This document shows positions 259 to 4,618 of a DNA stretch of 64,000 nt, piece by piece (within the stretch, counting starts at the first letter, position 1; each line of letters starts with the position of its first letter). A program made the translations under genes and the position numbers. The notes under the pieces were generated by a model. It was not told where the DNA came from. It worked only from the letters and a program-made list of their open reading frames with translations, and searched no databases. Source of the stretch: Escherichia coli (GTDB taxonomy: Bacteria; Pseudomonadota; Gammaproteobacteria; Enterobacterales; Enterobacteriaceae); the NCBI RefSeq assembly GCF_003334315.1, contig NZ_QOWR01000024.1; one strand, written 5' to 3'.

Positions 259-2958
259 ATGCGTAAATATCCTTTAAGTTTACTGAAGGATAAAAATATT
301 GTGACTTTTTTTGATTTCTGGGGAAAAACCCGACGCGGCGAGAAAGACGGGGGCGACGACTATCACCTTCTTTGCTGGCATTCGCTGGATGTAGCCGCGA
401 TGGGCTATTTAATGGTTAAAAGAAATTGCTTCGGGCTGGCTGATTATTTTCGTCAATTAGGGATTTCTGACAAGGAACAGGCGGCTCAATTTTTCGCCTG
501 GTTGCTGTGCTGGCACGATATTGGAAAATTTGCCCGCTCTTTTCAACAACTTTACCTGCCCCCTGAACTCAAGATTCAGGAAGGTGCCAGAAAAAATTAC
601 GAAAAAATCTCTCATTCAACGCTGGGCTACTGGTTGTGGAATCATTATTTAAGTGAATGTCAGGAGTTACTTCCTTCATCTTCGCTCTCTCCGCGCAAAC
701 TTAGGCGAGTGATAGAAATGTGGATGCCCGTGACGACAGGGCATCATGGTCGGCCCCCTGATCGTATGGATGAATTGGATAATTTTCTGCCTGAAGACAA
801 AGCTGCAGCACGAGATTTTCTCCTTGAAATCAAACCACTGTTTCCGCTCATAGAGATCCCCGCATTCTGGGATGATGATGAGGGCATTGAACTTATAAAA
901 CACCTTTCCTGGTATATCTCTGCAACCGTCGTGCTCGCAGACTGGACGGGTTCGTCAACGCGATTTTTTCCACGCGTCGCACACCCAATGGATATTAAAG
1001 GTTACTGGCAGAAAACTTTAATTCAGGCTCAAAACGCCTTAACCGTCTTTCCTCTAAAAGCAAAAGTCGCGCCTTTCAACGGAATTAATACGCTGTTTCC
1101 TTTTATTGAGAATCCGACACCGTTACAGCAAAAGGTGCTGGATCTGGATATCAGCCAGCAAGGACCGCAGTTATTTATTCTGGAAGATGTGACTGGCGCA
1201 GGTAAAACAGAAGCGGCGCTTATCCTGGCGCACAGGTTGATAGCTGCGGGGAAAGCTCAGGGGCTGTTTTTTGGTCTGCCAACAATGGCAACGGCCAATG
1301 CCATGTACGATCGGCTGGTCAAAACCTGGCTTGCTTTCTATTCGCCAGAATCCCGCCCCAGCCTGGTGCTGGCACATAGTGCCCGCACATTAATGGACCG
1401 CTTTAATGAATCACTCTGGTCTGGTGATTTAGTCGGGTCAGAAGAACCGGATGAACAAACGTTCAGTCAGGGATGTGCGGCCTGGTTTGCCGACAGTAAC
1501 AAGAAGGCGTTGCTGGCTGAAATTGGCGTCGGCACGCTGGATCAGGCGATGATGGCGGTGATGCCGTTCAAACATAATAATCTGCGGCTTCTGGGGCTGA
1601 GTAACAAAATCCTGCTGGCTGATGAGATCCACGCCTGTGACGCTTACATGTCGTGCATTCTTGAAGGGTTGATCGAGCGGCAGGCGCGTGGCGGAAACAG
1701 CGTTATTTTGCTTTCTGCCACGTTATCTCAACAGCAGCGCGACAAACTCGTCGCTGCCTTTGCGCGGGGTACAGAGGGCCAGCAAGAAGCTCCGTTCCTG
1801 GAAAAGGATGATTACCCCTGGCTGACGCATGTCACGAAATCCGATGTGAACTCACACCGGGTAGCGACGCGCAAAGACGTTGAGCGTAGCGTCAGCGTGG
1901 GTTGGCTTCATAGTGAACAAGAGTGTATTGCGCGTATCGAATCGGCGGTAAGTCAGGGGAAATGCATCGCCTGGATCCGGAATTCTGTCGATGACGCTAT
2001 TAAGGTTCATCGTCAGCTGCTTGCCCGCGGCGTCATTCCTGCTTCCAGCCTTTCACTTTTTCATAGCCGCTTTGCTTTTAGCGATCGCCAGCGAATTGAA
2101 ACGGAAACGCTGGCACGCTTTGGTAAATATTGTAGTTTACAGAGAGCGTCGCAAGTCATTGTTTGTACACAAGTAATTGAGCAAAGCGTGGATATTGACC
2201 TGGACGAAATGATCTCCGACCTGGCCCCTGTTGATTTGCTGATTCAGCGAGCAGGACGATTACAGCGGCATATCCGCGATATTAATGGTCAGTTAAAGCG
2301 TGACGGAAAGGACGAGCGTTCCCCCCCTGAATTGCTGATTCTGGCTCCCGTCTGGGACGACTCTCCTGGCGACGAATGGTTTGGCAGTGCCATGCGTAAC
2401 AGTGCATTTGTCTATCCCGATCATGGGCGAATCTGGCTGACGCAGCGTGTGCTGCGTGAGCAAGGTGCTATTCAGATGCCACACGCAGCCCGGCTTCTTA
2501 TTGAATCCGTCTACGGTGAGGACGTGGTAATGCCGGAAGGATTTGCCCGCAGCGAGCAGGAGCAAGTGGGCAAATATTACTGTGATCGCGCAATGGCTAA
2601 AAAGTTTGTGCTGAACTTCAGGCCCGGCTATGCCGCCAATATCAACGATTACCTCCCGGAAAAACTGTCGACACGTCTGGCTGAGGAGTCTGTTTCCCTG
2701 TGGCTGGCTACCTGTATTGACGGTGTGGTGAAGCCTTATGCCACCGGTGCTCACGCATGGGAAATGAGCGTTGTCAGAGTGCGCCGAAGCTGGTGGAAAA
2801 AACATCGGGATGAGTTTTCTTTACTGGAGGGAGAGGCGTTCAGGCTGTGGTGCATTGAACAGCGACAAGATCCGGAGATGGCAAACGTGATTTTAGTCAA
2901 CGATGACGAAAGTTGCGGGTATTCGGCTACGGAAGGATTGATTGGCAAGGTTGGTTGA
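259..2958 (+). CDS. cas3: Cas3 HD-nuclease/SF2 helicase, type I-E (899 aa)
   Basis: N-terminal HD motifs (HLLCWHSLDVAAMG, CWHDIGKF), helicase Walker A (TGAGKTEAA) and DEIH box (LLADEIHACD); lies directly upstream of the Cascade genes. Confidence 0.93.
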   Translation: MRKYPLSLLKDKNIVTFFDFWGKTRRGEKDGGDDYHLLCWHSLDVAAMGYLMVKRNCFGLADYFRQLGISDKEQAAQFFAWLLCWHDIGKFARSFQQLYLPPELKIQEGARKNYEKISHSTLGYWLWNHYLSECQELLPSSSLSPRKLRRVIEMWMPVTTGHHGRPPDRMDELDNFLPEDKAAARDFLLEIKPLFPLIEIPAFWDDDEGIELIKHLSWYISATVVLADWTGSSTRFFPRVAHPMDIKGYWQKTLIQAQNALTVFPLKAKVAPFNGINTLFPFIENPTPLQQKVLDLDISQQGPQLFILEDVTGAGKTEAALILAHRLIAAGKAQGLFFGLPTMATANAMYDRLVKTWLAFYSPESRPSLVLAHSARTLMDRFNESLWSGDLVGSEEPDEQTFSQGCAAWFADSNKKALLAEIGVGTLDQAMMAVMPFKHNNLRLLGLSNKILLADEIHACDAYMSCILEGLIERQARGGNSVILLSATLSQQQRDKLVAAFARGTEGQQEAPFLEKDDYPWLTHVTKSDVNSHRVATRKDVERSVSVGWLHSEQECIARIESAVSQGKCIAWIRNSVDDAIKVHRQLLARGVIPASSLSLFHSRFAFSDRQRIETETLARFGKYCSLQRASQVIVCTQVIEQSVDIDLDEMISDLAPVDLLIQRAGRLQRHIRDINGQLKRDGKDERSPPELLILAPVWDDSPGDEWFGSAMRNSAFVYPDHGRIWLTQRVLREQGAIQMPHAARLLIESVYGEDVVMPEGFARSEQEQVGKYYCDRAMAKKFVLNFRPGYAANINDYLPEKLSTRLAEESVSLWLATCIDGVVKPYATGAHAWEMSVVRVRRSWWKKHRDEFSLLEGEAFRLWCIEQRQDPEMANVILVNDDESCGYSATEGLIGKVG

Positions 2959-3055
2959 GATGTCTGCGACAGGACTCTCTGAATAGTTGATACACCGAAA
3001 AGGATGGAAAGATGGACAACCGACCTGGGATGGTCTTTTTTACGAGAGGATGCGT

Positions 3056-4618
3056 ATGAACTCGTTTTCACTTCTGACAACCCCGTGGTTGCCCGTTCGT
3101 TTTAAAGACGGAACGACAGGCAAACTGGCGCCAGTCGATCTGGCGGATGAAAATGTTGTCGATATTTCTGCGCCGCGGGCAGATCTCCAGGGTGCGGTAT
3201 GGCAGTTTTTGCTGGGGCTACTACAAACCAGCTTCGCGCCAAAAGATCATCGTCGTTGGGATGATATCTGGGAAGACGGACTGGAAGCTGAAAAGCTACG
3301 GGAAGCATTGCAGTCATTAGAACATGCTTTCCAGTTTGGGCCAGATTCCCCTTCATTTATGCAGGATTTCGAGGCGCTCACCGGAGATAAAGTTCCGGTC
3401 GCTTCGCTACTGCCTGAGATTCCCGGCGCTCAAACAACGAAGTTTAATAAAGACCACTTTATCAAGCGTGGTGTAACGGAATACCTGTGCCCACATTGTT
3501 CTGCGTTAGCTCTGTTCTCCCTACAGTTGAATGCGCCGTCAGGTGGCAAAGGCTACCGCACCGGTTTACGCGGCGGTGGGCCGATGACCACTCTGATTGA
3601 ATTACAGGAATATCAGGGTAATCAACAAACTCCCTTGTGGCGCAAACTGTGGATCAATGTCATGCCGCAGGATGAAGCCGATTTACCGCTACCCAAAAAA
3701 TTTGACGATCTGGTTTTCCCCTGGCTTGGCCCGACGCGCACCAGCGAACTGGCCGGTGCGGTGGTAACCGATGAGCAGGTCAATAAACTCCAGGCGTACT
3801 GGGGAATGCCTCGCCGTATTCGTATTGATTTTAATACCACGACAGTCGGCAACTGCGATATTTGCGGTGAGCAGAGCGACGCGCTCCTGAGCCTGATGAC
3901 GACCAAAAATTACGGTGCGAATTATGCCATGTGGCAGCATCCCTTAACGCCTTACCGTGTACCACTTAAAGAGGGTGGCGAGTTTTACTCCGTTAAACCA
4001 CAACCGGGCGGTTTAATCTGGCGTGACTGGTTAGGCCTTATCGAAACGGGTAAATCAGAAAACAATACGGAACTTCCCGCGCTGGTGGTGAAACTCTTCA
4101 ATGCCAGCAGTCTCAAGCAGGCAAAAGTGGGCCTGTGGGGATTTGGCTATGATTTCGACAACATGAAAGCGCGCTGTTGGTACGAACACCATTTCCCGCT
4201 GCTGCTCGATAAAAAAGAAGGTCAGATACCGAAGCTGCGGCTGGCTGCGCAAACAGCTTCACGGATTCTAAGTCTGTTACGGAGTGCATTGAAAGAAGCA
4301 TGGTTCTCCGATCCAAAAGGTGCAAGGGGTGATTTTAGTTTTGTGGATATCGACTTCTGGAACAAAACTCAGCATCGCTTTCTGAGGTTAGTGCGCCAAA
4401 TTGAAGAAGGTCAGGATGCGGATGAATTACTCAGCAAATGGAATAAGGAAATTTGGTTATTCGCACGTCAGGATTTTGACGAGCGTGTATTCACCAATCC
4501 TTATGAGCCCGTTGATCTGGAACGCGTCATGACCGCGCGCAAGAAATATTTTACAACATCGGCGGAGAAGCAAAGTGCTAAAGCCGCCAGGGAGAAAAAG
4601 CAGGAGGCTGCTGAATGA
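3056..4618 (+). CDS. cse1: Cse1 (CasA) Cascade large subunit, about 520 aa
   Basis: First gene after cas3 in a I-E operon; start placed at MNSFSLLTTPWLPVRF by analogy with the CasA N-terminus (MNLLIDNWIPVRP) and a GAGG RBS at 3046-3049. The ORF track begins earlier at 2987, and an ATG at 3050 is an alternative. Confidence 0.8.
   Translation: MNSFSLLTTPWLPVRFKDGTTGKLAPVDLADENVVDISAPRADLQGAVWQFLLGLLQTSFAPKDHRRWDDIWEDGLEAEKLREALQSLEHAFQFGPDSPSFMQDFEALTGDKVPVASLLPEIPGAQTTKFNKDHFIKRGVTEYLCPHCSALALFSLQLNAPSGGKGYRTGLRGGGPMTTLIELQEYQGNQQTPLWRKLWINVMPQDEADLPLPKKFDDLVFPWLGPTRTSELAGAVVTDEQVNKLQAYWGMPRRIRIDFNTTTVGNCDICGEQSDALLSLMTTKNYGANYAMWQHPLTPYRVPLKEGGEFYSVKPQPGGLIWRDWLGLIETGKSENNTELPALVVKLFNASSLKQAKVGLWGFGYDFDNMKARCWYEHHFPLLLDKKEGQIPKLRLAAQTASRILSLLRSALKEAWFSDPKGARGDFSFVDIDFWNKTQHRFLRLVRQIEEGQDADELLSKWNKEIWLFARQDFDERVFTNPYEPVDLERVMTARKKYFTTSAEKQSAKAAREKKQEAAE

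Follow-up and report, generated by a model that had tools for sequence, protein, structure and literature searches.

The 64,000-nucleotide stretch of Escherichia coli DNA analysed here (the window) carries a type I-E cas operon, and this study concerns the junction between its cas3 and cse1 (casA) genes. According to the open reading frames (ORFs) and the NCBIfam models, the genes are arranged in the order cas3-cse1-cse2-cas7-cas5-cas6e-cas1-cas2 and are all co-oriented. The cas3 coding sequence as annotated in RefSeq (259..2958, plus strand, 899 aa) scored above the cut-off with both TIGR01587 and TIGR01596, and ends with the TGA at 2956-2958. The cse1 coding sequence (3056..4618, plus strand, 520 aa) begins MNSFSLLTTPWLPV. 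Its product matched TIGR02547 with 610.6 bits (cut-off 70.05), residues 5-509 covering model positions 1-504. Between the two genes lies a gap of 97 bp (2959..3055, plus strand), exactly as the first-pass annotation of this DNA had stated. The gap has a GC content of 0.47, and no second copy of it was found within the window.

Judged by its protein models, the locus is the second of the two I-E variants of E. coli, not that of K-12, and resembles the cas-STM locus of Salmonella. The K-12-specific models stayed below their cut-offs (CasA, 110.9 bits against 576; Cas3, 425 bits against 569) while the general Cse1 model reached 611 bits, and the assignment rests on this difference. Gene order and orientation from cas3 to cas2 are the same as in Salmonella cas-STM. 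The Cse1 proteins of Salmonella and Citrobacter are 74-77% identical to that of the window and have the N-terminal pattern M-x-x-FSLLTTPWLPV in common with it. As in other loci of this kind, an AT-rich stretch lies directly upstream of cas3. With this gene order and a Cse1 about 75% identical to that of Salmonella cas-STM, the window operon is a contiguous cas-STM-like I-E operon. However, cas3 and cse1 nearly abut in cas-STM (11 nt), whereas they are 97 bp apart here.

Loci resembling cas-STM also occur in Citrobacter, Klebsiella and Phytobacter. The cas-STM genes of Salmonella have been described as contiguous, with matches to cas-STM in over 600 strains of Escherichia, Shigella and Klebsiella; in the cas-STY locus of Salmonella Typhi, 357 nt separate cas3 from the rest of the cas genes (PMC7712790). 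The queried stretch was present in 2447-2453 of 5426 complete E. coli genomes (about 45%), on the chromosome every time, and many E. coli chromosomes were 100% identical to the window.

Translation start of cse1

Two ATG codons, at 3050-3052 and 3056-3058, lie in the cse1 frame, as had been read before, and a GAGAGG motif occupies 3044-3049. The GAGG ends 6 nt upstream of ATG 3056, which is the spacing previously given, and directly abuts ATG 3050 (0 nt). An additional ATG had been placed at 2987, but the codon at 2987-2989 reads TTG. The 23-residue upstream translation reported with it agreed with the in-frame reading, xIHRKGWKDGQPTWDGLFYERMR. Because an in-frame TAG (2984-2986) directly precedes TTG 2987, this codon is no more than the first in the open frame that could serve as a start, and the TAG-TTG element (2984..2989, plus strand) was rejected as a cse1 start. 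A 97-bp intercistronic gap with an in-frame near-cognate codon upstream is unremarkable.

Six lines of evidence placed the beginning of cse1 at ATG 3056, the codon favoured by the first-pass annotation. This start is already the public annotation: RefSeq/PGAP calls casA from the equivalent of 3056 (1563 nt) in all 13 genomes inspected, which include O157:H7 Z903 and EDL933, O103:H2 and strains of five other allele classes. The comparison of N-termini across orthologs, proposed earlier as a check, gave the same answer. Among the best 120 Cse1 homologues, 116 carried a WLPV motif, and in 112 of these the tryptophan fell at residue 8-12. Counted from ATG 3056, the tryptophan of the window protein is residue 11, the modal position among the homologues; counted from TTG 2987, it would be residue 34. 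The exceptions were two Logan-only sequences with one common 20-residue extension, one cas3-cse1 fused call, and one protein with the tryptophan at residue 15. In the Cse1 family the N-terminus lies a few residues before (S)LL..PWLPV, and translation from ATG 3056 reproduces this arrangement. Position 1 of the TIGR02547 model aligns with residue 5 counted from the same codon.

It is extremely improbable that Cse1 starts further upstream, at TTG 2987 (23 more residues) or ATG 3050 (2 more residues). Both codons are in frame and 3' of the last stop at 2984-2986, and an ORF listing mechanically gives 2987. However, the variation of the extension among alleles resembles that of non-coding DNA. An 8-bp sequence is tandemly duplicated in E. 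coli (GATGGAAA|GATGGACA, 3003..3018, plus strand) but present as a single copy in the alignments of E. albertii and Escherichia sp. MOD1, so the extension falls in a different frame in both of these. The extension contains an in-frame TAA (GGATAACC) in NWU_4 and E. albertii, and MOD1 has TGG where the window has TTG 2987. The O157:H7 strains Z903 and EDL933 carry ATA at 3050, which leaves 3056 as the only conserved ATG. The Shine-Dalgarno pairing also favours ATG 3056, for which the anti-Shine-Dalgarno duplex has -5.8 kcal/mol at a spacing of 5-6 nt. The pairing for TTG 2987 is weak and misplaced (-4.0 kcal/mol, 11 nt). The alternative ATG (3050..3052, plus strand) was rejected for its 0-nt spacing and its loss in O157:H7. 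Finally, the homologue N-termini are without the extension, the longer ones being the two Logan-only sequences and the fused call. The N-terminal peptides predicted for the three starts are MNSFSLLTTPWLPVR (ATG 3056), MRMNSF (ATG 3050) and MIHRKGW (2987). The practical value of this outcome is small, the annotated cse1 start being confirmed.

The cas3-cse1 gap in relatives and alleles

The Pcas promoter of K-12 is silenced by H-NS and activated by LeuO and LrhA. In cas-STY of Salmonella Typhi, like the window locus a type I-E system of the Enterobacteriaceae, cas3 forms its own transcription unit and the cse1 promoter is LeuO-dependent. The first-pass annotation treated the window gap as the counterpart of the K-12 gap that carries Pcas. 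Both separate cas3 from the first Cascade gene, but they differ in size, GC content, sequence, relatives and the location of the AT-rich DNA, and the proposed equivalence did not hold. The K-12 cas3-casA region measures 414 bp with 29% GC, compared with 97 bp and 47% GC in the window, which is not the AT-rich composition of H-NS-type DNA. A blastn-short search (word size 7) found no match between the gap with 20-nt flanks and the 414-bp K-12 region. The LeuO/LrhA control sites at K-12 Pcas flank the start site and reach from about -116 to +55 (PMC12968389). A control region of the K-12 type could not fit into the gap, since it needs more than 170 bp and only 97 bp are available. As far as these sequences can tell, the Pcas analogy does not transfer to the window gap. 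The K-12 model of a separate, H-NS/LeuO-controlled Pcas should therefore not be carried over to the variant found in about 45% of E. coli, the carriers of which include many pathogenic lineages and in which control is most likely exerted upstream of cas3.

The distance from the cas3 stop to the cse1 start ranged widely among the relatives. It is 11 nt in Salmonella enterica (two clusters of 1577 and 500 sequences), Citrobacter youngae and Phytobacter ursingii, and mostly 2-22 nt in Methanosarcinales and other archaeal homologues. In E. albertii and Escherichia sp. MOD1 it is 89 bp, and in the window and other E. coli 97 bp. Longer gaps were seen in K. indica (151 bp), Intestinirhabdus alba (176 bp), C. 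rodentium (495 bp), K. spallanzanii and Atlantibacter (about 500 bp) and Chimaeribacter (862 bp). Compared with Salmonella, C. youngae and Phytobacter, Escherichia has 78-86 extra bp between the two genes. This extra DNA supplies a well-spaced Shine-Dalgarno sequence and is missing from the 11-nt junctions of these relatives.

The alignments identify the gap as a lineage-specific, Escherichia variant of the junction. Its resemblance to other loci was confined to the last 45 nt or so, which resemble the end of the 176-bp Intestinirhabdus alba gap. We asked whether the gap is homologous with the Pcas region of K-12 or with one of the long cas3-cse1 gaps (those of C. rodentium, K. spallanzanii, K. 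indica, Atlantibacter and Chimaeribacter). This was rejected, as only 13-15 nt around the Shine-Dalgarno sequence matched (C. rodentium and Intestinirhabdus). By the same comparisons the gap is non-coding and not homologous to K-12 Pcas. We also considered the gap as the relic of an ancestral junction with an old start (ATGGACAAC, 3012-3020, similar to the M-D-N start of Salmonella). This was not supported. Of 2000 shuffles, 123 scored at least as high as the local alignment between the gap and the Salmonella junction, and alignment with the Citrobacter and Phytobacter junctions was at chance level.

The first codons of cse1 co-varied with gap length across the relatives. Starts of the form M-x-x-FSLL accompany gaps of 11-97 nt (Salmonella, C. 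youngae, Phytobacter and Escherichia), and MFPxNL starts accompany gaps of 151-500 bp (K. indica, K. spallanzanii and C. rodentium). This co-variation suggests recombination breakpoints at the extreme 5' end of cse1. The archaeal Cse1 proteins, from Methanosarcinales, other archaeal genomes and metagenome-assembled genomes (MAGs), are 37-40% identical to the window Cse1. In most of these loci cas3 ends 2-22 nt upstream, a junction as compact as that of Salmonella.

Variation within the gap was compared among 13 Escherichia alleles, 11 of them from E. coli. The fraction of variable sites in the whole gap was 0.186 in the 11 E. coli alleles and 0.278 in all 13. The corresponding values were 0.235 and 0.341 at third codon positions of cas3, and 0.406 and 0.421 at those of cse1. 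Along the gap, 9 of 48 sites varied in E. coli at 2959-3006 (15 of 48 in all 13 alleles), 6 of 22 at 3007-3028 (9 of 22), and 3 of 27 at 3029-3055 (3 of 27). By this measure the 5' two-thirds of the gap drift at about the synonymous rate and are without recognisable function. The 3' part contains an invariant 22-nt block (ATGGTCTTTTTTACGAGAGGAT, 3030..3051, plus strand), identical in all 13 alleles, which holds the GAGAGG. U-rich tracts 5' of a Shine-Dalgarno sequence are known to aid ribosome binding, and a U-run lies beside the Shine-Dalgarno sequence here. On this basis, we interpreted the conserved 3' third (3030-3055), with its U-run, GAGAGG and 6-nt spacer, as the translation-initiation region of cse1.

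Two minor reading frames touch the gap. An 8-codon mini-ORF in the cse1 frame (MSATGLSE*, 2960-2986) begins 2 nt past the end of cas3. It lacks a Shine-Dalgarno sequence, its codons differ among alleles, and it is probably meaningless. On the opposite strand, a 109-codon antisense ORF extends over 2751-3080, and the 8-bp indel of E. albertii and MOD1 falls inside it.

Transcription across the junction

In this variant the AT-rich DNA, dense in promoter-like sites, is found upstream of cas3. From 75 to 300 on the plus strand, the DNA contains many promoter-like sites, and its AT-rich part (75-258) has a GC content of 0.255. In our own position-weight matrix (PWM) scan, the best scores upstream of cas3 (60-258) were 7.2-9.4. 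A GC dip to 20-32% directly upstream of cas3 was also found in Salmonella, C. youngae, Phytobacter, E. albertii and Escherichia sp. MOD1. A Cappable-seq study of O157:H7 EDL933, covering eight conditions, lists a minus-strand start site at 3,694,696 among the sites just downstream of annotated start codons; it was seen in each of the four stationary-phase conditions (PMC10469882). This position lies 19 nt inside the annotated cas3 coding sequence and corresponds to 278 in the window. Among the EDL933 sites just downstream of annotated start codons it is the only one that belongs to the locus, with no entry for casA to cas2 (PMC10469882). The AT-rich region is likely the main promoter region of the cas3-to-cas2 operon. 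The supplements of Landstorfer 2014 contain no cas entries, and in the literature we found no start-site or operon mapping for the non-K-12 variant in E. coli, Klebsiella or S. Typhimurium. In standard culture the locus is probably silent.

The annotated start of cas3 itself is doubtful. No Shine-Dalgarno match precedes ATG 259 (+0.4 kcal/mol), from which the protein would begin MRKYPLSLLK, and the EDL933 start site at 278 lies downstream of it. GTG 301 is preceded by AAGGA at 286-290 (-5.5 kcal/mol) and would give a protein of 885 aa beginning MTFFDFWGK. It matches the start of the Salmonella cas3 gene call, and 885 aa is close to the length of K-12 Cas3, so that GTG 301 may be the true start. 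The window opens (positions 1-74) within the terminal part of an IS421 element, which lies about 185 nt upstream of cas3 and is identical in strains 720632 and CFSAN061761. O157:H7 has no IS421 there, and homology resumes at window 75. The insertion has not disrupted the AT-rich region beside cas3.

A transcript entering the gap from cas3 would meet a small hairpin (GACC-TGGGAT-GGTC followed by T6; 3022..3041, plus strand). It is very unlikely that this hairpin acts as a leaky intrinsic terminator or attenuator, stopping most cas3 transcripts before cse1. The arrangement of GACC-N6-GGTC and six T residues has the outline of such an element. Its 3' arm and T-run are invariant in the 13 Escherichia alleles, and two substitutions in the 5' arm keep the pairing through G-U wobble. 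However, intrinsic terminators combine a GC-rich stem of at least 5 bp with a U-run and are more stable than chance. The 4-bp stem here is too weak, with about -6 kcal/mol, a z-score of about 0 against shuffles, and a length under the threshold of the terminator scan. A terminator at this place, without a strong promoter downstream, would leave Cascade unexpressed. The U-run is directly 5' of the Shine-Dalgarno sequence and more plausibly belongs to the cse1 translation-initiation region. Structured RNA in the gap was likewise rejected as a candidate, with no Rfam match up to E = 1 and fold z-scores of -0.7 to +0.6.

Promoters within the gap were sought by two scans. With at least 4 of 6 matches required per hexamer and a spacer of 16-18 nt, no sigma-70 site was found in 2500-3500, compared with 0.9 expected from shuffles. 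The PWM scan returned one promoter-like site in the gap, TTGATA (2987-2992) and AAAGAT (3008-3013) separated by 15 nt on the plus strand, with a score of 7.89 and a predicted start at about 3020. We consider it unlikely that this weak and unproven site is a sigma-70 promoter, created in E. coli by the 8-bp duplication. The hexamers match at 5 of 6 and only 3 of 6 positions, the 15-nt spacer is disfavoured, and the site does not reach the sigma-70 consensus. Equal-sized windows within the cas operon score as high in 4.6% of cases, and the sites of the K-12 Pcas region score 9.3-11.2. The site spans the duplication, and consequently it is absent from E. albertii and MOD1 (best PWM score below 5), in which the operon is intact. 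Nor is the gap AT-rich. In favour of a promoter, the score rises to 9.16 in the O157:H7 and NWU_4 alleles, which have AATGAT as the -10 hexamer. The 11 E. coli alleles agree in spacer length, in the whole -35 hexamer and at -10 positions 1, 2, 4, 5 and 6, and differ at the third -10 base (3010), which is A, T or G. The contrast between 1 of 12 variable hexamer bases and 4 of 15 variable spacer bases comes from a sample too small to carry weight.

Transcripts from such a promoter would encode Cascade without Cas3 behind a leader of some 36 nt, and the two would be partly uncoupled. The fuller proposal, that the E. coli-specific duplication in a lineage-specific insert created a weak internal promoter (TTGATA-N15-AAnGAT) and thereby let Cascade be made without Cas3, is quite unlikely. 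If true, it would describe an independent, non-homologous route to a K-12-like uncoupling of cas3 and Cascade. Close to half of E. coli, among them O157:H7 and other Shiga-toxin strains, carry this cas variant and would then be able to make Cascade independently of Cas3. The site would also be a modest case of a short duplication giving rise to a promoter.

The Cascade genes might instead have their own promoter inside the cas3 coding sequence, in which case the gap would be no more than a 5' leader. Where the junction measures 11 nt, as in several relatives, any Cascade-specific promoter would have to lie inside cas3, and intragenic start sites are reported by the thousand in EDL933 (PMC10469882). 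However, no promoter-like site above a PWM score of 5.3 was present in 2300-2958, the last 650 nt of cas3, the sigma-70 scan described above was empty, and the 3' half of cas3 has 52-57% GC. We therefore regard a promoter at this place as unlikely.

Taken together, the evidence favours the following arrangement. The cse1 gene starts at ATG 3056, the gap is an ordinary non-coding intercistronic spacer within a contiguous cas3-to-cas2 operon, and cse1 is probably expressed mainly by read-through from the cas3 promoter region. The gap was taken for a spacer rather than a promoter cassette because relatives have 11-nt junctions, cas-STM is contiguous, and the gap neither has the GC content of the K-12 Pcas region nor shows similarity to it. 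The empty sigma-70 scan, together with the AT-rich DNA and the EDL933 start site at the 5' end of cas3, led to the same view. Transcription would start mainly in the AT-rich promoter DNA next to the cas3 5' end, and the transcript would read through the gap, where there is no convincing terminator, into cse1. The 3' third of the gap, with the U-run, GAGAGG and 6-nt spacer, would then initiate cse1 translation. That cse1 is co-transcribed with cas3 from this region appears likely, as we infer from the same evidence. Two points weigh against this arrangement. The promoter-like site in the gap is at the 99.9th percentile of positions in the PWM scan, and every one of the 11 E. coli alleles has it, with no change in the -35 hexamer or the key -10 bases A2 and T6. 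Moreover, Cascade subunits are needed in larger amounts than Cas3, a stoichiometry that would favour some internal promoter or differential translation.

Unusual junctions

Three of the 13 inspected E. coli genomes combine an intact casA with a cas3 annotated as a frameshifted pseudogene. A different junction was found in 7 of the 5426 E. coli genomes, for example in NZ_OX030728.1 (459-923), which is one of these three loci (L002, L044 and L046), namely L044. Here the frameshifted cas3 of the window variant is followed by 465 bp and then by a different casA (MYPTSLITSPWL). Within the 465 bp are a perfect hairpin of 10 bp and two CRISPR-repeat-like units (TATCCCCGCTGACGCGGGGAAC), degenerate and in reverse orientation, and the junction looks like a recombinant locus.

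A contig from a MAG labelled 'Collinsella sp.' (JAIJJM010000114.1) is 98% identical to the E. coli cas3-cse1 region, the 97-bp gap included, and is probably a mis-binned E. coli contig. In the homologue P0021 (666 aa, from a Logan contig), a C-terminal segment of Cas3 (...CGYSANEGLIGMMGG) is joined to Cse1 (…FSLLTTPWLPV) in one ORF over a short junction, which could be either a real read-through fusion or a sequencing error.

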